Assembly (NCBI GenBank): GCA_001788565.1
Contig: MGCX01000043.1
Span: 1 to 44,126, forward strand
Reading direction: 5' to 3'
Origin: Candidatus Saccharibacteria bacterium RIFCSPHIGHO2_12_FULL_49_19
GTDB taxonomy: Bacteria > Patescibacteriota > Saccharimonadia > Saccharimonadales > UBA10212
DNA length: 44,126 nt
Shown here: positions 4,735 through 43,993 of the stretch, piece after piece
Position numbering within the stretch: the stretch's first letter is position 1
How the letters are laid out: each line of letters starts with the position of its first letter
Made by a program: the position numbers and the translations under genes
The notes under the pieces: model-generated
The model's input: the letters and a program-made list of their open reading frames with translations, nothing else
Told to the model about the DNA's origin: nothing
The model's database searches: none

Positions 4735-5097
4735 ATGGGAGACTACTTCGAACGTAAACTAGATGACAAGCGGAGGCTGACAGTTCCAGCCGAGCTTCGC
4801 ATGGAATTTACCAGCGGGGTAGTGGTGACTCAGGGATTTGGGAAATATCTGCACCTATACCCAAAGTCTGTCTGGGACGAACAGGTTGAGCCGGGGCTTC
4901 AAGGAAACATCCTTGATGAGCTAACCGCCGACCTCAACGTGCGTTTCCGGATGGGCAAGGTAGAGAGCGTGATAGACGGCAAACAGGGCCGAGTCACGCT
5001 GGAACAGCATCTCTTAGACTACGCCGGCATTAGCCGCGAAGTCGTAGCGGTGCGGGCGGGACGGTACTGGCGTCTGTCAGCCAAGCCAAGGGTATAG
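4735..5097 (+). CDS. mraZ: transcriptional regulator MraZ (short form)
   Basis: Two SpoVT/AbrB-type half-domains (DDKRRLTVPAELR and DGKQGRVTLEQHL). It sits at the head of the dcw cluster. Confidence 0.85.
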   Translation: MGDYFERKLDDKRRLTVPAELRMEFTSGVVVTQGFGKYLHLYPKSVWDEQVEPGLQGNILDELTADLNVRFRMGKVESVIDGKQGRVTLEQHLLDYAGISREVVAVRAGRYWRLSAKPRV

Positions 5098-5533
5098 AAC
5101 AGTCGAAACCTTAACAATCTGGTTTAGCAAGCCATTAGACACCTCACCTGAGGTTTCTCATCGCGCGGGCGCGGAATAAATCCGACGCTAGGGCTGCGTT
5201 TCCCGAGAAATCTAGAAGGAACGGTTAGCTCAAGATCAGCTAATTGGCAGTCAGCCGGTGGACTCATAAGGGTAACCACCGTTAAAAAACCTTAGCACCT
5301 TTTCTTTTGTAACACCTCCCAAAACTCCACCTCACTAAAAAGTCTCTCACAAGAACTTTTAAGGAACGAAAAAGCAAGAATCTCTCACCTCGGTGAGACA
5401 AAAACTCGCGCTTCTTCGCTTCCTTTTACTCCGAGTACTGCTCTCGGAGCAAACAAAAACAAAAAACCCCCAAAAACAAAAAGCTGGCTGCTGATTAGGT
5501 GACCTTGACACCAAAACAAACACAAAAACAAAA

Positions 5534-6412
5534 ATGCCAAAATCGTCACCTCACGTGGCGGTGCTCACACACGAAGTATTGCGTCTGCTGTCTCCGAATG
5601 CCGGAGACAGTTATCTGGATGTGACTGCCGGTTACGGCGGACACGCCCAGGCAGTCCTGCAAAGTACCAAAGCGCCGCTAAAAGCCGTTTTGATTGATCG
5701 TGACCGTCGAGCCGCAGACTATCTCAAGCAGAAGTTTGCCGGTTCCGGGGCGAAAGTCATCAAGAGCGACTTTTTATCTGCCAGCCGGCAGTTGGCGAGG
5801 CAGGGAAAGACCTTCAATTTAATTTTGGCCGATTTGGGTGTTAGTTCACCGCACCTTGACGACGCCCGACGAGGCTTTTCGTTCGAAAAACCGGGGCCCC
5901 TGGATATGCGAATGGACCAAAACCAGGTCCTGACCGCAGCTCAGATAGTAAATGAGTGGGACGGGCCCGAGCTGTCAGCAGTTATTGCCCGCTATGGCGA
6001 GGAACCCAGAGCGGCTCACATAGCCGAAGCCATTATCGCTTCTCGACCGGTAGGCGATACCAGACAGCTGGCCCGAATCGTTGCCGCGGTCATGCCAAGG
6101 CGCCAAAAGCTTCATCCGGCCACCAAAACCTTCCAGGGCTTGAGAATTGCCGTTAACGCCGAGCTGGTCCAGCTGGAGGAATCTCTGCCTATCTGGCTGG
6201 GACTCTTGACCCCCGGCGGCCGTATGGCCGTGATCAGCTTCCATAGCCTGGAGGACCGTATCGTAAAGCATTTTTTTGCTCAATTCGGCGGCAATACCTA
6301 CGATGCCGAGCTGACCGTCCTAACACCCAAGCCAGTCACCGCTAAACCAGACGAAATAGTGCATAATCCGCGAGCTCGCAGCGCAAAACTTCGAGCTTGC
6401 CAGCGAAAATAA
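5534..6412 (+). CDS. rsmH: 16S rRNA (cytosine1402-N4)-methyltransferase RsmH
   Basis: HVAVL..EVL, YLDVTAGYGGHA, LADLGVSSPHLD and ISFHSLEDRIVK. Confidence 0.92.
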   Translation: MPKSSPHVAVLTHEVLRLLSPNAGDSYLDVTAGYGGHAQAVLQSTKAPLKAVLIDRDRRAADYLKQKFAGSGAKVIKSDFLSASRQLARQGKTFNLILADLGVSSPHLDDARRGFSFEKPGPLDMRMDQNQVLTAAQIVNEWDGPELSAVIARYGEEPRAAHIAEAIIASRPVGDTRQLARIVAAVMPRRQKLHPATKTFQGLRIAVNAELVQLEESLPIWLGLLTPGGRMAVISFHSLEDRIVKHFFAQFGGNTYDAELTVLTPKPVTAKPDEIVHNPRARSAKLRACQRK

Positions 6413-6524
6413 AAACAAAAAGAGAGGAAAAACAAAAATCTGATGCCAATTAAGGTACAGAGTACATCCCGCGCATACAAAGTACACGTTAGAGTATTGT
6501 AACGAGTGATTTGAAGGGAAGAAC

Positions 6525-6556
6525 GGTGTATCAGCCGGTATGCAGGCTGATACACC
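6525..6556 (+). other. perfect 12-bp stem-loop in the rsmH-ftsL spacer
   Basis: GGTGTATCAGCC, loop ggtatgca, GGCTGATACACC. No T-run follows. Confidence 0.6.
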
Positions 6557-6573
6557 ACCAAGAAAACAAAAAT

Positions 6574-6918
6574 ATGACATACTCAAGCTCAGTTGCCACC
6601 CAATCCCGTCCACAAGTTCGACGTAATCAAAATTCCGTAGCTTTTGGAGCTGCTGCAAAAAGTTTGGGTCCGGTAAGTAACACCATCATCCTACTTTTTC
6701 TATTCGCGCTTATTGGTTTGCTCTATCTTACGCAAGTTACTAAGACCAATAGCTTCGGCTATAGCATAAATGAACTTCGTCAGCAGCGGTCTCAACTGCA
6801 GGACGAAAAAGCCGACTTAGAGATAGCCTCTGCTCGCTTACGATCACTTGATCGTGTTGCCCAGAGCGAGGTCGCCAAGTCACTGGTTCCAACAACACCG
6901 ACCGGAACAGTTCAATAG
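6574..6918 (+). CDS. ftsL: cell division protein FtsL-like
   Basis: Single TM (IILLFLFALIGLLYL) followed by a coiled coil (LRQQRSQLQDEKADLEIASARL). It lies between rsmH and ftsI. ATG 6574 is preferred over the track start TTG 6511, which would read through the hairpin. Confidence 0.6.
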   Translation: MTYSSSVATQSRPQVRRNQNSVAFGAAAKSLGPVSNTIILLFLFALIGLLYLTQVTKTNSFGYSINELRQQRSQLQDEKADLEIASARLRSLDRVAQSEVAKSLVPTTPTGTVQ

Positions 6919-6934
6919 CTATGAAGGGTGAGTA

Positions 6935-8713
6935 GTGGCACCCCGTAAATTGACAAATTCCAGCTCCAGCGGCTCGTCAAATCGTCGAGTCCAATTTTGG
7001 TATGCTGTCCTGATTATTATCCTGGCGGTAATGGTTGGACGGCTATTCTATCTGCAAGTTATCAGACATGAGCACTACCGTATAGCCGCCCTGGCTGATC
7101 AGCAGAAAGAGTACGCCATTGCCGCAGAGCGCGGGATTATCAAAGTTCAAGATGGCGGTCGCCAGACGCCGATAGTTCTAAACGAGAAGCTTTATACTCT
7201 ATACGCCGACCCGGTCTATGTAAAAGATGTCGGTGACACTGCTGATAAACTGGCAACTATTACCAAGGGTGATGCCAAGCAGTACGCCAGCAGCATAAAG
7301 TCGAACAGCAGCCGCTACGTGGTCTTAGCTAAGCGATTAAGCGAAGAACAGCAAGGGCAAGTTCTAGCTCTTAAGTTACCGGGAGTTGGAGCTCAAGCGA
7401 TTAATTACCGGACCTATCCACAAGGCTCATTAGCTTCACAGGTTCTAGGATTTGTGAATGACGAGGGGAAGGGGAGTTACGGGGTTGAACAAGCCCTGAA
7501 TAATGACCTTGCCGGACGAGCCGGGAGATTAAAAGCCATAACTGACGTCCAAGGTGTTCCTCTGGCGGCCAGCGAAGATAATGTCGAGATAAGTCCCCAG
7601 AATGGTGATAATGTAATTTTGACAATTGAGCTGGCTATGCAGAGGCAGCTGGAGTCAATTATGAAAGCTGGTCTGGATAAAGCCAAGAGCGGCTCGGGTA
7701 GCGCGCTGATTATGGATGCCAATACCGGGGCGGTCAAAGCAATGGCTAACTTGCCAACATATAACCCGGCTGATTTTTTCAATGTTACTGACCAAGGCGT
7801 ATTTAATAATGCCTGTGTTAGCTCGCCTCTGGAGGTTGGTTCGGTCATGAAAGTAATGACCGCCGCGGCGGCGCTGGATTTAGCTGTTATAAAGCCGGAC
7901 ACTGCTTTCTATGATCCGGGGCATTGGAAATTGAATGACCACGAAATTACCAACATTGAAGAAGTCGGAGGGCCCGGTACCCGAACTATCCCTCAAGTGC
8001 TTGATAGATCAATAAATACCGGGGCCGCTTGGATGTTAATGCAAATGGGCGGTAAAACCGGCTCTGTAAATAAACAGGCCCGGGAGCGCTGGTATGACTA
8101 CATGGTTAACCGCTACCAGCTGAGTAAGCCGACGGGGATTGAGCAGGGCTATGAATCGGGGGGAACTGTTCCTGATCCCAATGAGGGCTTCGCCCTGGAG
8201 CTAGCCTATGCCAATACATCATTCGGGCAAGCTATGACCGCCACGCCCTTGCAAATGGCCGCTGCTTTGGCTAGTGTCGTCAATGGCGGTACTTACTATC
8301 AGCCTCGACTGGTTGATGCGGTGGCCAAAGCAGACGGGCAGACTAAGAAGATTACTCCCAAGGTTGTCAAAAAGGGGGTAGTGGCCGGCCATGTCAGTGA
8401 TGAAGTCCGACAAATGATGGAATTCGTAGTAGCCAATCACCGTCCTCAGCCGCCATTCGCCAGCCAATACAGTGTAGGCGGTAAGACCGGAACGGCTCAG
8501 ATAGCAAACCCCAGCGGCGGCTATTACAAAGATAAATATAATGGGATGTATATCGGCTTTGTAGGTGGCGATAGACCACAGTACGTAGTCGTCGTACGCG
8601 TCAATGAACCTAAGATCGGCGGCTACGCCGGTTCAGCGGCGGCCCAGCCGATTTTTTGGCAGCTGGCGCATATGCTGATCAATAACTTTAATGTCCAGCC
8701 AAGAAGCCACTAA
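6935..8713 (+). CDS. ftsI: penicillin-binding protein 2/FtsI-type transpeptidase
   Basis: N-terminal TM and PBP dimerisation region. SVMK (SxxK), SIN (SxN) and KTGT motifs. GTG start. Confidence 0.9.
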   Translation: MAPRKLTNSSSSGSSNRRVQFWYAVLIIILAVMVGRLFYLQVIRHEHYRIAALADQQKEYAIAAERGIIKVQDGGRQTPIVLNEKLYTLYADPVYVKDVGDTADKLATITKGDAKQYASSIKSNSSRYVVLAKRLSEEQQGQVLALKLPGVGAQAINYRTYPQGSLASQVLGFVNDEGKGSYGVEQALNNDLAGRAGRLKAITDVQGVPLAASEDNVEISPQNGDNVILTIELAMQRQLESIMKAGLDKAKSGSGSALIMDANTGAVKAMANLPTYNPADFFNVTDQGVFNNACVSSPLEVGSVMKVMTAAAALDLAVIKPDTAFYDPGHWKLNDHEITNIEEVGGPGTRTIPQVLDRSINTGAAWMLMQMGGKTGSVNKQARERWYDYMVNRYQLSKPTGIEQGYESGGTVPDPNEGFALELAYANTSFGQAMTATPLQMAAALASVVNGGTYYQPRLVDAVAKADGQTKKITPKVVKKGVVAGHVSDEVRQMMEFVVANHRPQPPFASQYSVGGKTGTAQIANPSGGYYKDKYNGMYIGFVGGDRPQYVVVVRVNEPKIGGYAGSAAAQPIFWQLAHMLINNFNVQPRSH

Positions 8714-14422: not shown

Positions 14423-17035
14423 TTAGCGTAACCGGATGACCATCTCTTGGCTATCGGCACTAATGGGAGCTTGGGGCTTGGCCTGCCCTGTAGGACTGGT
14501 AGAGCTTTGAGCCGGCGGTTTCCTACGGCTGCGACGCCGACGCCTCTTAGTAGCTGACTGCGGCTGTTCAGCTGCGCTCAAACTACCAGCCGCCAGTTTG
14601 CCGATATCGGACGGTCTTTCCGGATGCGCTGGAGGGGAAGCACTTTTGGGGGCAGGTGCAGCTGGGGGTTGGGGTTTTTTGGGCTGATTTTGCTGACGGT
14701 CCATTGCCAGACCGGCGGCGCGGCGAACAATATCTTCTACCACCGGTCGCTCTTGGGCGTAGCGCTGGCGGGATAATTCGATTATCTGGGTTGAGGAATC
14801 TTGTGCCGGTAGTGGCAAGTTCAAGGTCTTGGCCGAAAAAGGCGGAGCCTTTTCGCCATTGATCATCATGGTGATCACAAAATATCGTGAGTGCTGGGCT
14901 ATCAAATCGGCCTCTTCGAATTGTGGTTCAAAGTATTTTTTCAAAAAAGGCGCGTCATCCGGACTAACCCTAAAAGTTATAATGGTGCCGACGTTGCCAA
15001 ACACCGCATCGCGGACCGGCTCACTCATCTGTGAGATGTATTGATTAGCAACTGTAAGAAAGAGATTATACTTTCGGGCCTCCGATAGGATAGCCGCGAA
15101 ACTGTCAGTGGCAAAGTTCTGGAACTCATCGACATAAAGATAAAACGGCCGACGCTGCTCCTGAGGCACGTTGGCTCGACCCATAGCGGAAAGCTGGATT
15201 TTAGTGACCATCATGGCGCCTAAAATACCGGCGTTGTCCTCGCCCATTAGTCCGCGGGAAAGATTGACGATCAAAATCTTACCCTGGTCCATAATCTGGC
15301 GCAGATTGAAGGTGCTTTTGGGCTGGCCGATAATGTTTCTAACCATCGGATTGGCCGTGAAAGCACCCACTTTGTTCAGCACCGGAGCCACTGCCTCGGT
15401 AGCAAACCTTTCATTCCAGCTAGCAAATTCGGTTATCCAGAAGTTCTTAACTACCGGGTCATCGATATGAGTGATGACCAAGTCGCGGAACTTTCGGTCA
15501 GTCAGCATCCTGGTGATATCCAGCATTGTGGAGTTGGGGTAATCCAGAAGCGCTAGTAAGGTGTAGCGCAGGATGTATTCCAGACGCGGTCCCCAGCTTT
15601 CGGCAAACAAGCGTTTGAGTACCCCGACTAACTCTGAGCTGACATGGCCTTTGAGCGATGGGTCGCCAACTTCCAGGGGATTAAAGCCGATTGGGTAATC
15701 GGAGTCCGCCGGGTTGAAGTAAACCACGTCATCAACTCTACGCGGCGGAATGAAGCTTAGCACGTTCTGGGCGTAATCGCCGTGCGGGTCAATGACCGCG
15801 AAGCCCTGATCATAGTAGATATCAGACAGCGTTAATAGCTCTAAAGCGCCGGATTTACCAGTTCCGGTTTGACCAAGGAGGTAAACATGTCGGCCGCGGT
15901 CTTCGCGGTTAAGGCCAAAGACGGTGTTATCACCACGGAAATTGGTCACTCCAAACAGACTAATGTCGCGTTCGTTGCCGACCACTTGCACTGGAATATT
16001 GGGCGGCGGTTCAGCCGTTTTGGTAGTAGCCCAGACGATATTAGGTGTTTCCACGGTGGTGTGCGGCAGGTGGAAAAGACTGGCTAACTCCTCAATATTT
16101 AAGATAAAGCCGTGATCGATGAAGAAGCGGGCCTGATATTCCAGCTGCTTATCACGGTCAAAACTCTGATGCTTAACCTCAAAGCCGTTTAGATTGGTGG
16201 TATTAAACTGCTTGAAGGCGCCAACCAGAGCCTGCATGCGCAATCGGGCGGTGTGTTGATCATGACCGGCGTACATTATTCTGATTTTGACTTGGTAACC
16301 AAGCTTGGTGCTCTTTTCCTGGATGGCGGTTATGCGGCTTTTGTCCCGCTCAGGGAGTTCTGCCGGGGTCCCGGGGACCCCCAAGCCGGCTTCCGGTGGT
16401 TTGGACAACGCTCCGAGCATCTGGGCGGCGTAGCTGACTGCGGAGCCTCCGCTGCCTCCGCCCAAGACTCCCCCGCCCCTTTTAATTCGATCTACCATTT
16501 TTTGGCCGCGCCTATGCCAATCATCGGGTATCGGCCGGGTAATCATCTGTATCCACATCTCTTCATCCTCTTTATCGAGTTTGGCTAGAGTGGCCGTGAT
16601 AGCCGCCAAGGGGTCTACCTCGAAGTTGGGGAAAGTCTTAATCGGCAGAGTCTCGTTGTCGGTTAGCGTCAGCTCACTGGAGTGGATGACACTCTGGTGC
16701 AGGCGGCGCTCGGAGTAATCCTCTTCCTGCTCGTAAATCTGCACCGTGGGGTATTGAGCATAGATCTGCCCTTCAACGAAGGCCTGTAATTGCTTGGGCG
16801 CCCAAATATAAAAGCGCAGACGCTGTCCAATAGCGGCTACCTCCAGGCTGATATGCTCCTGCAGCGAACTGGACCGCCGTAGTTCCTTCTTGGAGCGCAA
16901 AATCCCATGCAGGGAGGCCAGCATCTGCTCGGCAGCCAACTCTTTTTTATCATTGGTGCGCGGTACCTCCAGCAGCAGCAAAGTATAGTCGTGGCCCGGA
17001 TGTACGCTAACCTTACCTCTATTCAGTAAGCCCAT
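14423..17035 (-). CDS. VirD4/TraD-like (type IV coupling protein family) P-loop ATPase, soluble form
   Basis: Walker A GQTGTGKSG, Walker B FYLYVDEFQNF and TraG-D_C-like ARKYNLFLTVANQYISQM. The ~380-aa N-terminal domain is of unknown type. No TM helices. The C-terminal tail is Pro/Ala-rich and poly-Arg. Confidence 0.7.
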   Translation of the reverse strand: MGLLNRGKVSVHPGHDYTLLLLEVPRTNDKKELAAEQMLASLHGILRSKKELRRSSSLQEHISLEVAAIGQRLRFYIWAPKQLQAFVEGQIYAQYPTVQIYEQEEDYSERRLHQSVIHSSELTLTDNETLPIKTFPNFEVDPLAAITATLAKLDKEDEEMWIQMITRPIPDDWHRRGQKMVDRIKRGGGVLGGGSGGSAVSYAAQMLGALSKPPEAGLGVPGTPAELPERDKSRITAIQEKSTKLGYQVKIRIMYAGHDQHTARLRMQALVGAFKQFNTTNLNGFEVKHQSFDRDKQLEYQARFFIDHGFILNIEELASLFHLPHTTVETPNIVWATTKTAEPPPNIPVQVVGNERDISLFGVTNFRGDNTVFGLNREDRGRHVYLLGQTGTGKSGALELLTLSDIYYDQGFAVIDPHGDYAQNVLSFIPPRRVDDVVYFNPADSDYPIGFNPLEVGDPSLKGHVSSELVGVLKRLFAESWGPRLEYILRYTLLALLDYPNSTMLDITRMLTDRKFRDLVITHIDDPVVKNFWITEFASWNERFATEAVAPVLNKVGAFTANPMVRNIIGQPKSTFNLRQIMDQGKILIVNLSRGLMGEDNAGILGAMMVTKIQLSAMGRANVPQEQRRPFYLYVDEFQNFATDSFAAILSEARKYNLFLTVANQYISQMSEPVRDAVFGNVGTIITFRVSPDDAPFLKKYFEPQFEEADLIAQHSRYFVITMMINGEKAPPFSAKTLNLPLPAQDSSTQIIELSRQRYAQERPVVEDIVRRAAGLAMDRQQNQPKKPQPPAAPAPKSASPPAHPERPSDIGKLAAGSLSAAEQPQSATKRRRRRSRRKPPAQSSTSPTGQAKPQAPISADSQEMVIRLR

Positions 17036-30924: not shown

Positions 30925-32418
30925 ATGGATTTTCTAGATCCGCGTAAACGACGCGCCCACCGCAACAGACTAATGATTGGCTATGTCTTGGTGGCATTAG
31001 CGGTAGGCTTGGGCACAATCATTTTGGTTTACGATGCTTATGGCTATGGAGTGAATACCAAAACCGGCGATATCATCCAAAACGGGCTACTGTTCGTAGA
31101 CTCTAAGCCGGGGGGCGCCCGGATCTATCTGGATGGTAAATACCAGGATGCGGATACCTCCTCCAGACTAATTCTGCCGGCTAGGACCTATCAGCTTAGT
31201 CTGAAAAAAGAAGGCTATCATGACTGGGTTCGTAATTTTACCCTTAGTGAACACTCTATATCCCGATACGTCTATCCCCTGCTGCTGCCCTCTGAGCCTA
31301 AGCCGCAGCTTCTAAAAAAGTACACTACGTCACCGGGATTGATGACCCAAACGCTGGACCGGCGTTTACTACTCGTACAAGCACCCCGCCCTCAACCCGG
31401 CGACTTCGTTTTTGAGGAGTTCGATCTTGGTGATCCTCAAAAAGAGCCAATCGTCAGAACTCTCTCGGCTGGTTTGTTAACTAATGCCAGCCAAGGCGGT
31501 GACAGCCTGACTGAAGTAGAATGGTCAACCGACAACCGTCACGCACTGCTGCGCCATGACTACAAAGGCGGCTTCGAGTTTATTATTTTTGACCGCCAGG
31601 ACCCGGCCTCGTCAGTGAACATTAACCGCTTGTTTAAACTCACTCCATCTCAAGTAGCACTGCGCAATAAACGCGTTGACCAGGTATACATTTACGGATC
31701 GGCTGGCGGTACCCTGCAGGTCGGTAATACAGGGGATGGCCAACTAGCGCAGCCCTTTCTGCGCAATGTCATCACTTTTAAGTCGCATGGTACCACTTTG
31801 TTGACATATGTGACAGCCGAAACTGCTCCAGCCGGCCAAGTTGATGCCCGAATCTGGGATAATGGGCAGACTTATCAATTAAATCAGTTTCCAGTTGGGT
31901 CCAGCTACCTCTTGGATGCTGCTCAGTTTCAAGGTCATTGGTATTATGTCGCGGCCAGCAATACTACTGAACGCATCGGAGTATATAAGGACCCGCTCAG
32001 CAGCCTAAAAGACCCGGCTAACAAAAGAGCCAGTCCGATTGTTGCACTTCGTATCACTGGCGGCGAAAAGGTCACTTTCTCAGCTAATACCCGTTTTATA
32101 GGCGTGCAAGCGGGCTCAAAATTCGCTGTCTATGATCTAGAAGTTAAAAACAGCTTTAGCTATAGCTTGGATCCAGTACCGACTGGTACTTTGCGATGGA
32201 TAGACGGTCACCGCTGGGTGGGCTTGTCTGGAGGCAGCGTAACTATTTCCGATTACGACGGCATCAACAGCCATAACTTGGTACCAAGTACTTCAGTAGG
32301 CGGAGCCTTCTTTGATCGTGATTACGAGATCTTTGTCAGCACTGCGCCGCCTGATAGCTCAGGAGCAGTTAATCTGCAGGTAACCGATCTGCGTGCCGGG
32401 TCTGACCTGCCCCGCTAA
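30925..32418 (+). CDS. PEGA domain-containing membrane-anchored protein
   Basis: N-terminal TM, a PEGA motif region (LFVDSKPGGARIYLDGKY...YQLSLKKEGYHDW) and a large beta-rich C-terminal part. Confidence 0.7.
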   Translation: MDFLDPRKRRAHRNRLMIGYVLVALAVGLGTIILVYDAYGYGVNTKTGDIIQNGLLFVDSKPGGARIYLDGKYQDADTSSRLILPARTYQLSLKKEGYHDWVRNFTLSEHSISRYVYPLLLPSEPKPQLLKKYTTSPGLMTQTLDRRLLLVQAPRPQPGDFVFEEFDLGDPQKEPIVRTLSAGLLTNASQGGDSLTEVEWSTDNRHALLRHDYKGGFEFIIFDRQDPASSVNINRLFKLTPSQVALRNKRVDQVYIYGSAGGTLQVGNTGDGQLAQPFLRNVITFKSHGTTLLTYVTAETAPAGQVDARIWDNGQTYQLNQFPVGSSYLLDAAQFQGHWYYVAASNTTERIGVYKDPLSSLKDPANKRASPIVALRITGGEKVTFSANTRFIGVQAGSKFAVYDLEVKNSFSYSLDPVPTGTLRWIDGHRWVGLSGGSVTISDYDGINSHNLVPSTSVGGAFFDRDYEIFVSTAPPDSSGAVNLQVTDLRAGSDLPR

Positions 32419-33638
32419 AACAAGAGGTTGACCAAACGAGACCATAAACTTGGAGCGTTACCGGGAATTGTTGTAACTTTACTGGTCAATTCTTCGCTGG
32501 TGTCCTTAGCTATATTAGTATTCGGATCAGGATTGATTTGTCTTCCGACTACGACCAGACGGTTGATAGTTGTGCCTGGCGGATCGCAGGTTATCAGGCT
32601 GATCGTAGCTGGCTCGTCACGTGCGCTAAGAACTGATACATCTGTTGGTTTGACTACCTCTCTTTTGTAGACTTCATAGGTATAGCGTTTGCCGTCCCTG
32701 TCCAGGTAAAAAATGTCGCCGTTTTCCAGGCGTCTAAGCATAACGAACGCGAATTTATACTTGCCTTTATTGAAAATATTATTAGAAGAATGCCCCACAA
32801 TTACCCCGTTACCCACTTCACCCGGGAGCGGTGTATTAGCATAGTGCACCACCCCATTTTCTAAAGCTTGATTAACACTGGCCTCATCCACGGTCTTGAC
32901 GCCGTATACCACTGGTATTTCAACGTTAATCTTGGGAATAATAACCTGAGAGTTAGAACCACTAGCCACACTGCTACTGATGATCGGAGTACTGGTAACG
33001 TTACGACTAGGCTGAATAAAGGGAGCAATAAAACGCTCATTAAAAAATCCAAACAGAAAGATCAAAAGCACGACCGACCCAACAGCTAACCCGAATAATA
33101 AAGACTGGAAGTGTTGAGCGGGCTTAACTCTGACTTTAGACTTGTCGCTTGAACGACCAAACAGAGAATCTTTCAAATCGCCGATACTGTGGGCTACAGC
33201 GCTTGGTCTTTTAGCTTCTTTTCTGGGTATCGGCGGTTCCTCCGGCAGAGTCATTGGCCCGGCTTTTGGGGCCAGCGACGGAGCGGCTGCTGCGAACTTA
33301 GAAGTTCGGGCGTGAGCTTCGTAGAATTCTTCCCAGATCATATGCTTCTCTTTATCGGGTAGCCCCGCATAATACTCGTGCCAGGCGGTCTGGATATCAG
33401 CCAAGGATCTGCCTGAGGTGGTCAGATTATAAATAAATTCTTGATGCTGTGACTTGGGAGTGCCTAGCTCGGCCACATCCAAGGCTTCTGTAGCCGCGTC
33501 AGGCTCTTGGCCGTAGGCTCGCCGTACCTTTTGGCGTACCAACTCAGCCGCCGGATCGGGCTGGCTCGGTTGAGCCCGGTCCGGAATTGGCAGCATAAAA
33601 CTTAAGTTATCGTCAACAGGTGGTTCGTCTGGTTTCAT
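32415..33638 (-). CDS. sortase-family transpeptidase with a ~190-aa N-terminal extension
   Basis: Catalytic His (VIVGHSS), Cys (LITCDPPGT) and Arg (VVVGRQ), with a TM before the catalytic domain. Confidence 0.8.
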   Translation of the reverse strand: MKPDEPPVDDNLSFMLPIPDRAQPSQPDPAAELVRQKVRRAYGQEPDAATEALDVAELGTPKSQHQEFIYNLTTSGRSLADIQTAWHEYYAGLPDKEKHMIWEEFYEAHARTSKFAAAAPSLAPKAGPMTLPEEPPIPRKEAKRPSAVAHSIGDLKDSLFGRSSDKSKVRVKPAQHFQSLLFGLAVGSVVLLIFLFGFFNERFIAPFIQPSRNVTSTPIISSSVASGSNSQVIIPKINVEIPVVYGVKTVDEASVNQALENGVVHYANTPLPGEVGNGVIVGHSSNNIFNKGKYKFAFVMLRRLENGDIFYLDRDGKRYTYEVYKREVVKPTDVSVLSARDEPATISLITCDPPGTTINRLVVVGRQINPDPNTNIAKDTSEELTSKVTTIPGNAPSLWSRLVNLLF

Positions 33639-33701: not shown

Positions 33702-33786
33702 GGGCGAGTGGCGGAATTGGTATACGCGCACGACTCAAAATCGTGTTCCGCAAGGATTGTGGGTTCGATTCCCACCTCGCCCACCA
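33702..33786 (+). tRNA. tRNA-Leu (anticodon CAA), long variable arm, CCA encoded
   Basis: Acceptor GGGCGAG/CTCGCCC, anticodon stem CACGA/TCGTG, loop CTCAAAA, T-arm GTGGG-TTCGATT-CCCAC. Confidence 0.93.
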
Positions 33787-33823: not shown

Positions 33824-35218
33824 ATGTTAAGCCATCAACAAAAAATCAATCGTGTGGCTGATCGAGTTCTCTACCTCAGTTCTGCAGGTACAAAGATACG
33901 TGTTTATCACGGAAGTACCAACACTACGCGCACACTCCGACGCAGAAGAGATGAAATTGTAGATGTTTCTGACCTAAATAGAGTACTTGAGGTCAACACC
34001 AAAAAACGAAGCGTCATTATCGAACCGAATGTGCCAATGGATAAACTCGTTTCTACGACAATAAAATATGGTCTGGTGCCCCCTGTTGTCCCGGAATTTC
34101 CGGGTATTACTGTAGGTGGTGCTGTTGCCGGCGGCTCCGCAGAATCTGCTTCGATTCAATACGGTCTCTTTCACAACCTGGCACTCTCTTATGAGATTGT
34201 TCTTGGGACCGGAGAGGTTATTAAGGCATCATCAAAAACGCACCCTGATCTTTTTTACGGTACGGGCGGCACTTGCGGGACTCTAGGTATTATTACCGCT
34301 ATTGAGCTTAATCTTGTTCCTGCCACAAAGTATGTTCGTCTTGAGTATATCGTTGTCAAAGACCGGGGTGATCTATTAAAAAAAGTAACTGCTAACTCCG
34401 GTTCAAAAGCAGATTTTGTAGATGCAATACTTTTTGAAAACGGCGGCGTTGTTGTACTGGGTTTCCGTACTGACAACCGTGATGGTATCCCTGTCCGCCG
34501 TTTTTCACGACCGTGGAGTGAGTGGTTTTACCTCCACGCGAAAAAGATGGCTGAAAGCGGCGGTGGTAGCGAAGTTGTTCCACTCCAGGTTTATTTATTT
34601 CGGTACGATCGCGGCGCTTTTTGGATGGGAGATTACGCCTTTCAAACTTATCCTTATCATATTCCAAACAACAGATTTACAAGGTTTCTATTTAATCCAT
34701 TATTGAAAACAAGAATGTTGTATAGAGGACTTCAGGAGTCCAACATTGCGCAACAATACATCATCCAGGATTGTTGCGTACCAGGCGAGCGCGCGGCAGA
34801 ATTTTTAGACTATATAGACTCTTCTTTTCAAATTTACCCGCTTTGGGTACTGCCAATAGCTCCGGAGGCGTTTTCAGATACCAATATCCGGACGAAAAGT
34901 TTTGTAATCAATGTCGGTATTTGGGGGCCTTTAGGCCTGCCTTACGAAAAGTTCGTTGAAAAGAATATTGAACTTGAAAAAGTAGTTGCTCAACTAGGCG
35001 GCTGCAAAGCCCCTTACGGGCACTTCTATGGAGATAAGAATATTTTCTGGAAAAACCTCAAAAAAGAGACTTACGAAAAATTAAGAAAGAAATACCACGC
35101 CGATAGAGCATTCCCGTCATTTTATGACAAGATACGTGTGAACGAGCGCTACACGCCGACTGTAACAAAAGGATTTTTCCGAGCTCTTAGGCCTTTTTGG
35201 CGGCTACCCTTGTCTTAA
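33824..35218 (+). CDS. FAD-binding oxidoreductase of the DHCR24/DWF1 (delta24-sterol reductase-like) family
   Basis: Collinear by eye with eukaryotic DHCR24. Matching blocks are ITVGGAVAGGSAESASIQYGLF, SYEIVLGTGEV, DLFYGTGGTCGTLGI, PATKYVRLEY, YPLWVLPI and RAFPSFYDKI. Confidence 0.8.
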   Translation: MLSHQQKINRVADRVLYLSSAGTKIRVYHGSTNTTRTLRRRRDEIVDVSDLNRVLEVNTKKRSVIIEPNVPMDKLVSTTIKYGLVPPVVPEFPGITVGGAVAGGSAESASIQYGLFHNLALSYEIVLGTGEVIKASSKTHPDLFYGTGGTCGTLGIITAIELNLVPATKYVRLEYIVVKDRGDLLKKVTANSGSKADFVDAILFENGGVVVLGFRTDNRDGIPVRRFSRPWSEWFYLHAKKMAESGGGSEVVPLQVYLFRYDRGAFWMGDYAFQTYPYHIPNNRFTRFLFNPLLKTRMLYRGLQESNIAQQYIIQDCCVPGERAAEFLDYIDSSFQIYPLWVLPIAPEAFSDTNIRTKSFVINVGIWGPLGLPYEKFVEKNIELEKVVAQLGGCKAPYGHFYGDKNIFWKNLKKETYEKLRKKYHADRAFPSFYDKIRVNERYTPTVTKGFFRALRPFWRLPLS

Positions 35219-35228
35219 CTAAACAACT

Positions 35229-35269
35229 TTCCGCGAGCATTGTGGGTTCAAGTCCCACCTTGCTCACCA
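35229..35269 (+). repeat. partial tRNA-Leu copy (variable arm, T-arm, acceptor 3' strand, ACCA); att-like direct repeat of 33746-33786
   Basis: 35 of 41 positions are identical to the 3' half of the tRNA-Leu at 33702-33786, with the T-stem GTGGG/CCCAC intact. No 5' half is present. Confidence 0.75.
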
Positions 35270-35272
35270 CTA

Positions 35273-35301
35273 TTGACAATTATCCGATACGACTGTTTAC
35301 T
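35273..35301 (+). promoter_or_regulatory. possible promoter (TTGACA-17 nt-TTTACT)
   Basis: Consensus -35 with a weak -10, immediately after the tRNA fragment and 37 nt upstream of ATG 35339. Confidence 0.35.
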
Positions 35302-35338
35302 TAAAACAGATAGACAAAAACAAAAACAGTTCACAAAA

Positions 35339-36097
35339 ATGAGTACAACTCTTGAAGCCAGCCCAGAGGTAAAGGACAAATACGCGAAGCATGAAGCCGC
35401 CGCTGGTTTTTTAGGCCGTTTGGCTGACTCAGAGTTTGGCTCGCAGTTTAGTGAAAGAACGATATCCAACTGGGGGCAAGCTTTAAGGGTAATATTTGAA
35501 GTTGATAATATCTTTGATGGTCGGGATGATGAGGCTAAGGCGCGTGCCATAATTGCCCTGAGGTCTTTTTTTGGTTCTGGCGGCAATAGTGCTTCTGTTC
35601 AGGAAGGAGACCTCACTCCTGAAACTCTCCAGGAAGCTACGAAGCTTCGGGCAATGATATCGGATAAACAAGCCCAAAATTTTGTTAATACGGGTCTCCA
35701 GGTAATTTCAGTCAGCCAATCTATGAGATCGGTAGGATCCCCGAGAGAATTAGCTCGTCTGACCATGCTTGAAGGCCAAATGACCGCGACGATGCTGGTG
35801 CATCTCATTGAACCAGAGGATAGAGAACAGCCCGGCTGTAACGACTTTATACGTTTTTTGAGAGTAGCATCTAGGGCTGCTAACGTGGTTGACAGTATTG
35901 CCGACTTAAAGACTGACTATTCAGAGGGTGTATCAGTCGTTAAGCCGACTCTTCCTAATAGATTGATTATGCTATGGGAGTGCCTACCAGCTGTTAAAAG
36001 AAGTGTAGACACCTTGGGGGCATTGGCGGTAGTCAGAAAGATGCCTCAAGCGGCTTGGCAGGTAATCCGTGACCGAAGCAGGACCGCGGAGCAATAG
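35339..36097 (+). CDS. all-helical protein with two Asp-rich motifs, squalene/phytoene synthase-like (class 1 isoprenoid synthase fold), tentative
   Basis: RVIFEVDNIFDG and ANVVDSIADLKTDYSEG resemble the two DxxxD motifs of SQS/PSY enzymes. The track start 35240 lies inside the tRNA fragment, so ATG 35339 is preferred. Confidence 0.4.
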   Translation: MSTTLEASPEVKDKYAKHEAAAGFLGRLADSEFGSQFSERTISNWGQALRVIFEVDNIFDGRDDEAKARAIIALRSFFGSGGNSASVQEGDLTPETLQEATKLRAMISDKQAQNFVNTGLQVISVSQSMRSVGSPRELARLTMLEGQMTATMLVHLIEPEDREQPGCNDFIRFLRVASRAANVVDSIADLKTDYSEGVSVVKPTLPNRLIMLWECLPAVKRSVDTLGALAVVRKMPQAAWQVIRDRSRTAEQ

Positions 36098-36099
36098 TA

Positions 36100-36816
36100 A
36101 TGCTGCCAGAATCCATTACCACCCATATGTATTTTTGGGGTTCTCTTGTACTGCTGGGACTCTTTGCAGCCATATTCTATTACCGACCCGATCTTCGCCG
36201 TCGAATGATACGAATGGGCATCGCGGTTGGAATACTTGGAGTCTTATCTGAAGCTGTATTCTTTCAGGATTATTGGCACCCACCGCTGGTTATAAGATTT
36301 GGTAGATTTGGCGGCATTGAAGACTTCTTCTTTGGTTTTAGCTTTGGGGGTATATGCGTAGCTCTCTACGATGTCGTATTCCATAAAAGGCTCAAAAAAA
36401 AGGGCTACCCCCACTACTGGATTATTCCTCTTCTTGTTGTATCAGAGGTACTTTCAATACTAATACTCAGCCAGTACATGAATAGCATTTATGCCAGCGC
36501 GATTGGCTTTGTATTACCTGCAGCGGCGGTCATAGCTGTCCGCCGGGATTTGATTGTGGAAACTGTTTTCTCGGCAATCCTAGGAGCTTCACTGCTGATA
36601 CTAATGGAGATGATCTTGCTGCTGCTGGCGCCGAATTACTTGCGGCAGTACTTTTTGCTGTATGGAGAGGTCCCTCTCATTTTTGGCGTTGTACCGATTA
36701 CTGAGTTTCTGTGGGGAGCTGCCTTCGCTGCAATTGTTGGCCCACTTCGTGACTTTGAGTTCGGCTACGCCCCTGTCCGGATCGAGCAGAAGAAGTCAGC
36801 CAATTCTAGAAGATAA
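36100..36816 (+). CDS. lycopene cyclase domain-containing membrane protein (fused two-half type), tentative
   Basis: About 7 TM helices. Two halves each carry an h-I-E/T-D/E-F motif (GGIEDFFFG and VPITEFLWG), like the PxEE motif of CrtYc/CrtYd. It starts 2 nt after the preceding stop. Confidence 0.5.
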   Translation: MLPESITTHMYFWGSLVLLGLFAAIFYYRPDLRRRMIRMGIAVGILGVLSEAVFFQDYWHPPLVIRFGRFGGIEDFFFGFSFGGICVALYDVVFHKRLKKKGYPHYWIIPLLVVSEVLSILILSQYMNSIYASAIGFVLPAAAVIAVRRDLIVETVFSAILGASLLILMEMILLLLAPNYLRQYFLLYGEVPLIFGVVPITEFLWGAAFAAIVGPLRDFEFGYAPVRIEQKKSANSRR

Positions 36817-36820
36817 TGGT

Positions 36821-37618
36821 CTAAGCTGTGTTTCTCGAAGCAAAATAGACGGCGGAGGTTAAAGCTTCGAAAGGCTTAGAGGGGTTCTGGAGCCACCAGA
36901 CTCCAGTATAAGCTGCTAGCTCCGGAAATCTGATTGGTTCAACAGAGGTGGTACTAACTTTCCCATCTGTCGCGACTGCTACGCTCCCCTGGTGATAAGT
37001 TATCAGGGAAGCTTCAACCTCCCCTGACCATGCCGCTAGTGCTTTTACAAGCTCGTATAGGCTCATATCATGTGTTAATGGACTAGTTCTACGGCTGTAC
37101 TTAGCAAGGGCCTGCAAACGCCCAAAATCGGCCAAAATCACCGTTTTTTTGCGGTTAAGGGGTTTATCGGATACGTGTAAGAAGTAATCAATGCTATCAC
37201 CACACATCGTCACTTGACCGTCGAACTTCTCTAAAAAGGCTTCCAAGAGGATAGCGGTTTCGCTGTTTTTGCCAAAGTCCCCAGCCAGTAGCACGCCGTC
37301 TGCCCAGCTAGCTTGGTCGATCAGCTGAGCTAATGCACTTTTAGAAAAACTGCCCACCGAAGTGCTTGAAGCAAATTCAGCCTCAGCAAACAACCTGCTG
37401 ACTGTCGCTCGCAGCTTATCTGGTAAAACCACTCTTACTGAGCCGGATCCAGCTTTTTCAGCAGCCGAGAATGCCTTAGCAGCTGCCGTAAAGCCGTGCA
37501 GGTTACCACCGACTATCAGAAGTTTTCCGGCTTGAGCTTTATTCTCCGGCTGGCTCCAAATCAAGTCCTCGAAGAGTGGTTTATCGGCCGTTTGTTTTAA
37601 CCAACTGGTATTTTCCAT
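36821..37618 (-). CDS. YjeF-C/NAD(P)H-hydrate dehydratase-like carbohydrate-kinase-fold protein (divergent)
   Basis: GKLLIVGGNLHGFTAAAKAFSAAEKAGSGSVRVVLP resembles the Nnr N-terminal signature. The C-terminal GSGD motif was not recognised. Confidence 0.4.
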   Translation of the reverse strand: MENTSWLKQTADKPLFEDLIWSQPENKAQAGKLLIVGGNLHGFTAAAKAFSAAEKAGSGSVRVVLPDKLRATVSRLFAEAEFASSTSVGSFSKSALAQLIDQASWADGVLLAGDFGKNSETAILLEAFLEKFDGQVTMCGDSIDYFLHVSDKPLNRKKTVILADFGRLQALAKYSRRTSPLTHDMSLYELVKALAAWSGEVEASLITYHQGSVAVATDGKVSTTSVEPIRFPELAAYTGVWWLQNPSKPFEALTSAVYFASRNTA

Positions 37619-42833: not shown

Positions 42834-43589
42834 ATGAAATCGGTCCTGCCGGTCGTTTCTGTAGTCATCCCGGCTTACAACGAGGCTACCTACATCGATC
42901 GTCTGCTGGAGGATCTGACCAAACAGAGCTTTGCCAATTTTGAAGTTATTGTTTCTGACGCTGATTCCAGGGATGGCACCGATAAAGTCGTAAAAAGCTT
43001 TAAGGGCAAGCTGGATATCAAGATGGTCGTCTCGCCGCCCAAGGGTCCGGGGGCTGGCCGCAATCTCGGGGCGAAATCAGCCCGTGGAGGGTGGCTGCTG
43101 TTCCTAGATGCCGATGTCGATATTGATGACCCGAACTTTATTGGAACGCTGCTCGCGAGAGCGAAAAACAGCGGCTGGGGAACAGCTTCCGCGAAAATGA
43201 GAATGAACAAAGCGCCTATCTACAACCGGCTGGGTCTGAGCATGTTTTACAACTACCAAAAACTTCTATCACACACCAAGCATCCAGTAGCCCAAGGGTA
43301 TTGCATACTTACTCGGAGAGATATCTTCAGGGCAAATAACGGTTTCAACGAAAAGATCTTTTACGGTGAAGATAATGACTATGTATCAAGAACCGGGAAT
43401 CACGGCTTTGGCTTTGTCGAGCAAACTTATTATTATGTGGACCCGCGGCGCAACCAGCAGGAAGGAGCCATATGGTTCTCAATTAAAAATTTACTTCACG
43501 AGATGTACCGGATAACCCATCTGTCGGGTCTTGAGAGTCAGCCGTTTAAGTACGAGTTCGGTAAACACCAGCCTCGCAAAAAGAAATGA
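42834..43589 (+). CDS. family 2 glycosyltransferase (polyprenol-phosphate glycosyltransferase-like)
   Basis: VSVVIPAYNE, VIVSDADSRDGT and LFLDADV. ATGA overlap with the downstream gtrA-like gene. Confidence 0.85.
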   Translation: MKSVLPVVSVVIPAYNEATYIDRLLEDLTKQSFANFEVIVSDADSRDGTDKVVKSFKGKLDIKMVVSPPKGPGAGRNLGAKSARGGWLLFLDADVDIDDPNFIGTLLARAKNSGWGTASAKMRMNKAPIYNRLGLSMFYNYQKLLSHTKHPVAQGYCILTRRDIFRANNGFNEKIFYGEDNDYVSRTGNHGFGFVEQTYYYVDPRRNQQEGAIWFSIKNLLHEMYRITHLSGLESQPFKYEFGKHQPRKKK

Positions 43590-43993
43590 CCAGACGCCAG
43601 CTCATCAAGCAATTCATCAAGTATATGATTGGCGGCGGCGTCTATTTTTGGAGCGGCTACGCCGTTTTTGCCCTTTGCTACAGTGGGCTATCGTGGGACT
43701 GGTTCCCGGCTAAAGTCGCTGCCGACGTGGTGGGCTGGACGCTGGGCTTCTTCGTCCAGCGGTATTGGGCTTTCCACCACCCGTCACTGGCCGGCAAAAC
43801 CGTCAAAATCACTGGTAAATACATCCTGGTAAATGCCACCAATTTCATAATCGACTACCTGATAGTTTGGGGGCTAAACAGTGCTGGTGTCACACCATAC
43901 ATTGGCTTGTTTGTAGCCGCCGGCTTCTTCACGGTTTGGAACTACGTGTGGTACCGCTTCTGGGTTTTCAGCCCGATCAACCCCAAAGGCTAG
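43586..43993 (+). CDS. GtrA-family membrane protein
   Basis: 135 aa with four TM helices and a FIKYMIGGG N-terminus. Translationally coupled to the GT2 gene. Confidence 0.8.
   Translation: MTRRQLIKQFIKYMIGGGVYFWSGYAVFALCYSGLSWDWFPAKVAADVVGWTLGFFVQRYWAFHHPSLAGKTVKITGKYILVNATNFIIDYLIVWGLNSAGVTPYIGLFVAAGFFTVWNYVWYRFWVFSPINPKG

Follow-up and report, generated by a model that had tools for sequence, protein, structure and literature searches.

Do three neighbouring genes that resemble isoprenoid-modifying enzymes, set beside a tRNA gene in a Saccharibacteria genome, form a single pathway, or have they come to lie together by separate routes? The genes, numbered 1 to 3 in their order, are found on contig MGCX01000043.1 (assembly GCA_001788565.1) of Candidatus Saccharibacteria bacterium RIFCSPHIGHO2_12_FULL_49_19; the whole stretch of DNA that was analysed, 44,126 nucleotides (nt) long, is referred to as the window. 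An earlier note on this DNA had joined all three into one coherent unit that would make, cyclise and/or saturate an isoprenoid end. The answer reached here divides that unit in two: gene 1 is a separate, recently inserted cassette that was independently acquired and does not belong to a conserved three-gene pathway, and genes 2 and 3 on balance probably form an older, lineage-specific, two-gene isoprenoid-tailoring operon that occupies a variable slot next to the tRNA gene, independently of the gene 1 cassette. The three genes lie on one shared strand with short gaps, and none of them is a chance open reading frame (ORF), because each has many homologues. The slot and its flanks comprise the following features.

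32415..33638, minus strand: gene of the sortase family that forms the slot's conserved left flank; the syntenic gene matches Pfam Sortase in the relatives L001 and L016.
33702..33786, plus strand: intact tRNA-Leu(CAA), called by ARAGORN and matched by the Rfam tRNA model at 61.8 bits; left border of the slot and attL-like side of the cassette.
33824..35218, plus strand: gene 1, a putative DHCR24/Diminuto-like oxidoreductase dependent on flavin adenine dinucleotide (FAD), predicted to be soluble, 464 amino acids (aa), assigned by its FAD_binding_4 match and its alignment with DHCR24.
35229..35269, plus strand: 41-nt remnant of a tRNA-Leu 3' end (variable arm, T arm and 3' strand of the acceptor), the attR-like repeat.
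35339..36097, plus strand: gene 2, a predicted soluble, all-helical protein of 252 aa from an unnamed family, with a likely class I terpenoid-synthase fold (AlphaFold2 and Foldseek).
36100..36816, plus strand: gene 3, a putative membrane protein of 238 aa with a lycopene-cyclase domain of the CrtYc/CrtYd type and about seven transmembrane (TM) segments, assigned by family-level homology to PF18916.
36821..37618, minus strand: Carb_kinase-like gene, the conserved right flank; the syntenic gene has a weak Carb_kinase match in L001, L016 and the P0167 contig, and the window copy has no Pfam match at E<=1e-3.

Gene 1 is the sole gene between the tRNA-Leu(CAA) and the remnant, within an insertion of ~1.4 kb, and this architecture sets it apart from its neighbours. 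The remnant corresponds to positions 45-85 of the live tRNA, with 85% identity over 41 nt, and matches the tRNA of the relative L005 better than it does the window's own (93.5% identity over 31 nt); letter for letter it shares its T arm, GGGTTCAAGTCCCACC, with the L005 tRNA-Leu, and the live tRNA in the window has a different one. Because its T arm is of the L005 type, the remnant is best read as the displaced ancestral 3' end, for which the insert brought a replacement. A ~1.4-kb cassette with gene 1 as its only cargo would thus have entered tRNA-Leu(CAA) at its 3' end; the incoming DNA would have rebuilt the tRNA and pushed the ancestral 3' end 1.5 kb downstream, where it would persist as the 41-nt remnant. 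The remnant itself is matched by no tRNA model (ARAGORN, Rfam), and the scar holds no second functional tRNA or other RNA family. The supposed module had been described as abutting a tRNA scar; what abuts gene 1 is the intact tRNA-Leu(CAA), and the scar lies inside the module, between genes 1 and 2. The same tRNA-Leu is present at the same syntenic position in L001, L005, L009 and L016.

Composition and distribution point the same way. The guanine-plus-cytosine (GC) content of gene 1 (0.438, z = -2.35) and its GC at third codon positions (GC3, 0.389) are both the lowest of the 36 genes in the window, among which genes 2 and 3 are compositionally ordinary. Gene 1 is missing at this locus in L001-L003, L005, L006, L009, L016 and the P0167 contig, and it was found neither in any of the seven syntenic relatives nor in any fetched gene 2 or gene 3 locus. 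Conversely, its own homologues in L004, L014 and L015 are singletons in unrelated places (three of the three contexts examined), with no gene 2 or gene 3 nearby. These homologues have as neighbours a YafQ toxin together with an rve integrase, a faint Y1_Tnp match, or a type I restriction-modification system (L014 4332-5303, L004 4381-5046, L015 1-3427), and from their proximity to integrase, transposase-like, toxin-antitoxin and restriction-modification genes it would seem that mobile or variable regions often carry the reductase gene. It sits uneasily with the insertion that no integrase was found between the repeats, the cassette holding gene 1 only, and the cassette would therefore be either decayed or mobilised in trans.

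The product of gene 1 carries an N-terminal FAD_binding_4 domain of the vanillyl-alcohol oxidase (VAO) type (PF01565; 65.4 bits, E 5.7e-18, residues 8-135) and is, as judged by sequence comparison, DHCR24-like over its full length. Aligned by BLASTP with human DHCR24, whose sequence was entered by hand, it shows 29% identity over 459 residues (E 6e-60), which bears out the collinearity with delta24-sterol reductase asserted in the earlier note; the alignment reproduces the blocks named in that note, among them TVGG...ES.S..YGLF, DLFY...CGTLG and AFP..YDKI, and ends at AFPxxYDKI. It extends through the family-specific C-terminal half of gene 1, and other VAO-family proteins in the PDB match the N-terminal part only (residues ~10-260, mostly 45-220). 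Its first aligned positions are residue 67 of the human protein and residue 4 of gene 1; since it starts only there, gene 1 is devoid of the N-terminal membrane anchor, and a hydrophobic N-terminus is absent. In comparison with the eukaryotic Delta24-sterol reductase DHCR24/DWF1 (Diminuto), gene 1 is thus collinear in both the FAD-binding domain and the C-terminal half and differs in having no anchor and in belonging to a family that is widespread in Patescibacteria, in which all three homologues with an examined context stand alone. This family counts >1300 homologues, the best 120 of which are 41-64% identical to gene 1; those that are named all come from Patescibacteria (Kaiserbacteria, Levybacteria, Kerfeldbacteria, Nomurabacteria and Saccharimonadales), and several bear the label "delta24-sterol reductase" in the Joint Genome Institute (JGI) data. 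The window holds no sterol genes, and no sterol pathway is known in these bacteria, a further difference from the eukaryotic enzyme.

Once gene 1 is set aside, the argument turns on the nature of the two remaining genes. The start codon of gene 2 is ATG 35339, and both the homologue alignment supporting this start and the structural model agree with the all-helical protein of 252 aa that had been described from this codon. Two longer gene calls are ORF-calling artefacts: one in the window (35240-36097, from TTG 35240) runs through the tRNA remnant ('WVQVPP...'), and a database gene call in L005 (43-1005, P0003) extends upstream through the tRNA-Leu ('GEWRNWYTRTTQNRVP...'). Neither as a single sequence nor as a 100-sequence profile does gene 2 obtain a significant match in Pfam, NCBIfam, PDB sequences or PADLOC. 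A word-index search recovered three relatives only, and an exhaustive profile search reached 218 representative clusters (50% identity) at E<=1e-3, nearly all of them 240-270 aa long and, where named, each a "hypothetical protein" from Saccharimonadales or Levybacteria. The family alignments A3 and A4 were too diverse for locus scans; close relatives of gene 2 gave no result when scanned against GTDB, and a metagenome scan recovered L001 again and nothing else.

Within the 100-sequence alignment, D56, D185, D189 and D193 are invariant, and W45, D60, E145, G146 and P203 are at least 90% conserved. The aspartates make up two motifs of metal-binding type, D56xxxD60 and D185xxxD189xxxD193. In the AlphaFold2 model each lies at the C-terminal end of a helix, the first of helix 39-59 and the second of helix 167-195, at a distance of 129 residues. 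Two acidic motifs with such a spacing have the geometry of the DDxxD/NSE or DxxxD/DxxxD pairs. The model itself, built from the same alignment, is all-helical and of high confidence (predicted local distance difference test (pLDDT) 91.8, predicted template modelling score (pTM) 0.87); an earlier, low-confidence model from three sequences (pLDDT 63.8) had indicated the same fold. Searched against the PDB with Foldseek, 47 of its top 50 matches are terpene synthases, prenyltransferases or CrtM-like proteins and three are unrelated. They include TaTC6 (7w5h), LvqB4 (7vws), hydropyrene, pentalenene and aristolochene synthases and the CrtM-like 8isa, together with MoeN5, UbiA homologues and trans-prenyl synthases; probabilities are ~0.9-1.0 for most matches, and TM-scores are 0.44-0.51 for those of the terpene-synthase type. 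On the strength of this model we think it quite likely that gene 2 adopts a class I terpenoid-synthase fold.

Membership in the squalene/phytoene synthase family is a different matter. Gene 2 does not match SQS_PSY (PF00494), one of 100 family members reaches E 0.017, and hhalign of the gene 2 family with Staphylococcus aureus CrtM (sequence entered by hand) gives a probability of 1.7%, with the second Asp motif aligned to the CrtM RDVGED region. The likeness of the paired Asp motifs to those of squalene and phytoene synthases, on which the earlier note had relied, therefore stands as to the helical class I fold and the conserved aspartates, and at the level of sequence membership in SQS_PSY is not supported.

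Gene 3 has ~7 hydrophobic segments and is internally duplicated: its N-terminal and C-terminal halves are homologous (hhalign E 1.5e-5), with ~3 TM segments per repeat, each repeat bearing a conserved acidic motif. GGIEDFFFG in the first half aligns with PITEFLWG in the second (IED with ITE), and E51 with E170; the residues E51, E74, D75, E170, T201 and E202 are invariant in the family alignment. PF18916 is matched by 23 of the 26 family members (E<=0.01), and the hidden Markov model (HMM) of the family matches a neighbouring paralogue in relatives at 2.9e-27, this paralogue scoring 79.3 bits on PF18916. Because of these family matches, the link through the paralogue and the homology of its halves, gene 3 is assigned by transitive homology as a divergent fused CrtYc/CrtYd-type protein, in agreement with the ~7-TM, two-halved lycopene-cyclase-domain protein that had been anticipated. 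The paralogue, encoding ~255 aa, follows immediately on gene 3 as a further gene with a cyclase domain (L001/L002 8719-9486, L009 8723-9484; Lycopene_cyc 79.3 and 68.7 bits). The window has no such second gene; there, 4 nt separate the end of gene 3 from the convergent Carb_kinase-like gene.

Genes 2 and 3 are found together beyond the window. In the window, the genome represented by L001-L003, L005 and L006, the gene immediately downstream of gene 2 encodes a fused cyclase-domain protein; in the Saccharimonadales metagenome-assembled genome L016, gene 2 is followed instead by a split CrtYc/CrtYd-like pair of small membrane proteins (110 + 126 aa, with the motifs PWEEVFF and EIETYLF, 6803-7517) that replaces the fused gene 3. 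The two partners are therefore adjacent in five distinct Saccharimonadales loci, the pairing being confined to one Saccharimonadales clade, and they are separated by a 2-nt gap in the window and overlap by 1 nt in L001. The tight spacing and the two partner architectures, fused and split, argue for a functional link between gene 2 and the cyclase-domain genes, and a two-gene core is plausible. What accompanies this core varies from one relative to the next. The L005 slot holds tRNA-Leu, gene 2 and gene 3 with nothing between; in that of L001-L003, gene 2 (36% identical) and gene 3 (68%) are accompanied by an unknown protein of 191 aa and by the cyclase-domain paralogue; that of L006 holds a methyltransferase-like gene, gene 2 and gene 3. 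The 191-aa protein (L001 6587-7162) has no family match and follows the tRNA-Leu where the window has gene 1.

The reading that best withstands these data as an alternative to the two-gene operon, although we regard it as unlikely, is that the adjacency is incidental: gene 3 would belong to the conserved core as a membrane gene, gene 2 would be unrelated cargo at a tRNA-Leu hotspot, just as gene 1 is, and the two proteins would not work together. A number of observations weigh against the operon, and several of them are what incidental adjacency would predict. The L009 slot keeps gene 3 and its paralogue and has no gene 2, an ACP-like gene standing in its stead; this ORF of 121 aa (7482-7847; acyl carrier protein (ACP) model TIGR00517, E 4e-14, below cut-off) follows the tRNA-Leu. 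On the P0167 contig (JGI 3300056388), a UbiA-family prenyltransferase (5004-5846) lies directly upstream of a gene 2 homologue (6001-6747), and the slot has no cyclase-domain gene. The more distant gene 2 relatives L007, L008, L017 and L019-L021 are singletons, as are the gene 3 relatives L010-L012, and the pairing is judged on the about a dozen loci examined for gene context.

Further points bear on the identity of the two proteins and on their supply. In its predicted fold and in the acidic motifs on two long helices, gene 2 resembles class I terpene synthases and squalene-synthase-like prenyltransferases (7w5h, 7vws, pentalenene synthase, 8isa), but it counts only 252 aa, has no sequence-level similarity to them, is tied by no sequence profile to any terpenoid-synthase family, and obtains weak Foldseek E-values (best 0.018) at TM-scores of ~0.5 (~0.45-0.51). 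Gene 3 scores 23.3 bits on Pfam Lycopene_cyc (PF18916), whose gathering cut-off (GA) is 27, and has no match to TIGR03462, so that the cyclase assignment fails on the curated models and holds at the level of the family. The window contains no prenyl diphosphate synthase and no isopentenyl diphosphate (IPP) pathway, and a rhizosphere Saccharibacteria genome has been reported to be without an IPP pathway (PMC6031116).

Against incidental adjacency, in turn, the cyclase-domain partner of gene 2 comes in a fused and in a split form; the pairing persists as gene 2 diverges to 34-36% identity; the spacing suggests translational coupling; and a class I-fold enzyme encoded beside CrtYc/d mirrors a known functional pairing (PMC10016063). 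These features lead us to retain the two-gene operon.

The earlier proposal of one pathway in which genes 1, 2 and 3 make, cyclise and saturate the end of a C30/C40 isoprenoid fares worse and now seems improbable. All three family resemblances are real, and isoprenoid chains or their terminal isopropylidene groups are what enzymes of each family work on; the shared strand and short gaps of the genes also speak for it, as does the slot, which in relatives gathers lipid and isoprenoid genes (UbiA, ACP-like, methyltransferase), so that an insertion of gene 1 at this place could have been selected. However, the tRNA remnant parts a compositionally foreign gene 1 from gene 2, gene 1 is absent from every syntenic relative and in each of the three contexts examined its homologue stands alone, and the trio is seen in this organism only, no co-occurrence of the three genes being found among the seven syntenic relatives and the fetched loci. 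The window also offers no desaturase or C15/C20 synthase to feed a C30/C40 route. The claim of a single coherent unit thus fell on the absence of gene 1 from the relatives, on its place behind the tRNA remnant and on its outlying composition.

Very improbable is the reading of genes 2 and 3 as what is left of a crtB-crtYc/d operon for carotenoids that was acquired from an actinobacterial host and, through decay, has lost its defined product: crtI-crtB-crtYc/d operons do occur in Actinobacteria (PMC10016063), and the window and fetched loci are without crtI or a geranylgeranyl diphosphate (GGPP) synthase, as decay would have it, but the gene 2 family has no significant SQS_PSY similarity (the single member at E 0.017 and the 1.7% for CrtM given above) and is broad (218 clusters, extending to Levybacteria), and this breadth together with the strict conservation of its catalytic-type Asp residues argues for a maintained function of its own.

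The nearest known arrangement is nonetheless that of carotenoid producers. In Actinobacteria, Halobacteria, fungi and some protists, crtB is adjacent or fused to crtYc/d (PMC10016063), and the window resembles these operons and fusions in that gene 2, with its predicted class I fold, is encoded beside a cyclase-domain membrane protein, which may be fused or made of two small subunits (L016). It differs from them in that gene 2 is not detectably SQS_PSY and its second motif is DxxxDxxxD, in that gene 3 falls below curated cut-offs, and in that no crtI desaturase or GGPP synthase lies near genes 2 and 3; indeed, neither the window nor the fetched loci contain crtI, a GGPP synthase or a polyprenyl synthase, and a crtB context was likewise not encountered there. 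The Saccharimonadales host, a reduced symbiont, is not known to make carotenoids. A second comparison is offered by the C50 carotenoid cluster of Corynebacterium, which consists of crtB, crtYe/Yf and the UbiA-type elongase crtEb. The likeness is one of protein types only: between them, the relatives have in this slot an enzyme of predicted class I fold, a cyclase-domain pair of the split kind and a UbiA prenyltransferase; by contrast with the Corynebacterium cluster, the three types never occur together in one locus examined here, and crtI and crtE are missing. A search of the literature for links between lycopene cyclase or DHCR24 and Patescibacteria or Saccharibacteria returned nothing relevant.

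How the pair might work can be proposed from these likenesses. The DxxxD and DxxxDxxxD motifs of gene 2 would hold Mg2+, through which a prenyl diphosphate would be bound and ionised; this substrate would probably be drawn from the undecaprenyl pool or obtained by scavenging, and the product would be released to the membrane. There, the paired intramembrane Glu/Asp residues of gene 3 would protonate the terminal isopropylidene double bond, so that the end of the isoprenoid would be cyclised or hydrated. Users of undecaprenyl phosphate are encoded in the window (MraY, MurG, FtsW and GT2/GtrA). Gene 1 may act on a similar isopropylidene end, tied to the gene 2/3 pair by its present position only; here, as for the substrate and the product, we infer the chemistry from the families. 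A wider and rather doubtful extension of the two-gene operon would make of the slot a dedicated, modular isoprenoid-lipid tailoring locus next to tRNA-Leu in Saccharimonadales, in which small class I synthases and CrtYc/d-type cyclases would be combined with swapped accessory cassettes (UbiA, DHCR24-like reductase, methyltransferase, ACP-like) and turn prenyl diphosphates, scavenged or taken from the undecaprenyl pool, into new cyclised or saturated membrane terpenoids.

Around the slot, the window is a housekeeping stretch, just as had been said of it: the division and cell wall (dcw) cluster (MraW, PBP, MraY, FtsW, MurG), TopA, DprA, Pth and Der are accompanied by a two-component system, GluRS, glycosyltransferases with GtrA, and SmpB, and the gene order is that of contigs labelled Candidatus Saccharimonadales. 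Amid these housekeeping genes, an 870-aa protein (14423-17035, minus strand) with weak matches to VirD4/TraG/TrwB coupling proteins and HerA-type ATPases looks type IV secretion-like, and a GtrA-family gene (43586-43993, plus strand) has a GC3 of 0.706 (z = +3.2), unusually high for the window. That the tRNA slot might be a defence island was considered and rejected because PADLOC returned no matches.

Patescibacteria, also called the Candidate Phyla Radiation (CPR), are regarded as dependent on hosts for lipids and most building blocks. If the two-gene reading is true, a terpenoid-synthase-like enzyme paired with a membrane cyclase would mean that Patescibacteria actively remodel isoprenoids, with a bearing on how ultra-small episymbionts build or adapt their membranes. 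Class I terpenoid synthases would gain a new sequence family for which Pfam has no model and which comprises at least 218 clusters at 50% identity, and lycopene-cyclase-domain proteins in organisms without carotenoid synthesis would be given a first functional handle. For its part, gene 1 shows that a DHCR24-like reductase with a wide distribution among Patescibacteria can be brought into sterol-free bacteria by the insertion of a cassette. Should the modular-locus reading also be true, a new class of membrane terpenoids would exist in bacteria thought unable to build their own lipids, with gene 2 as a previously unrecognised family.

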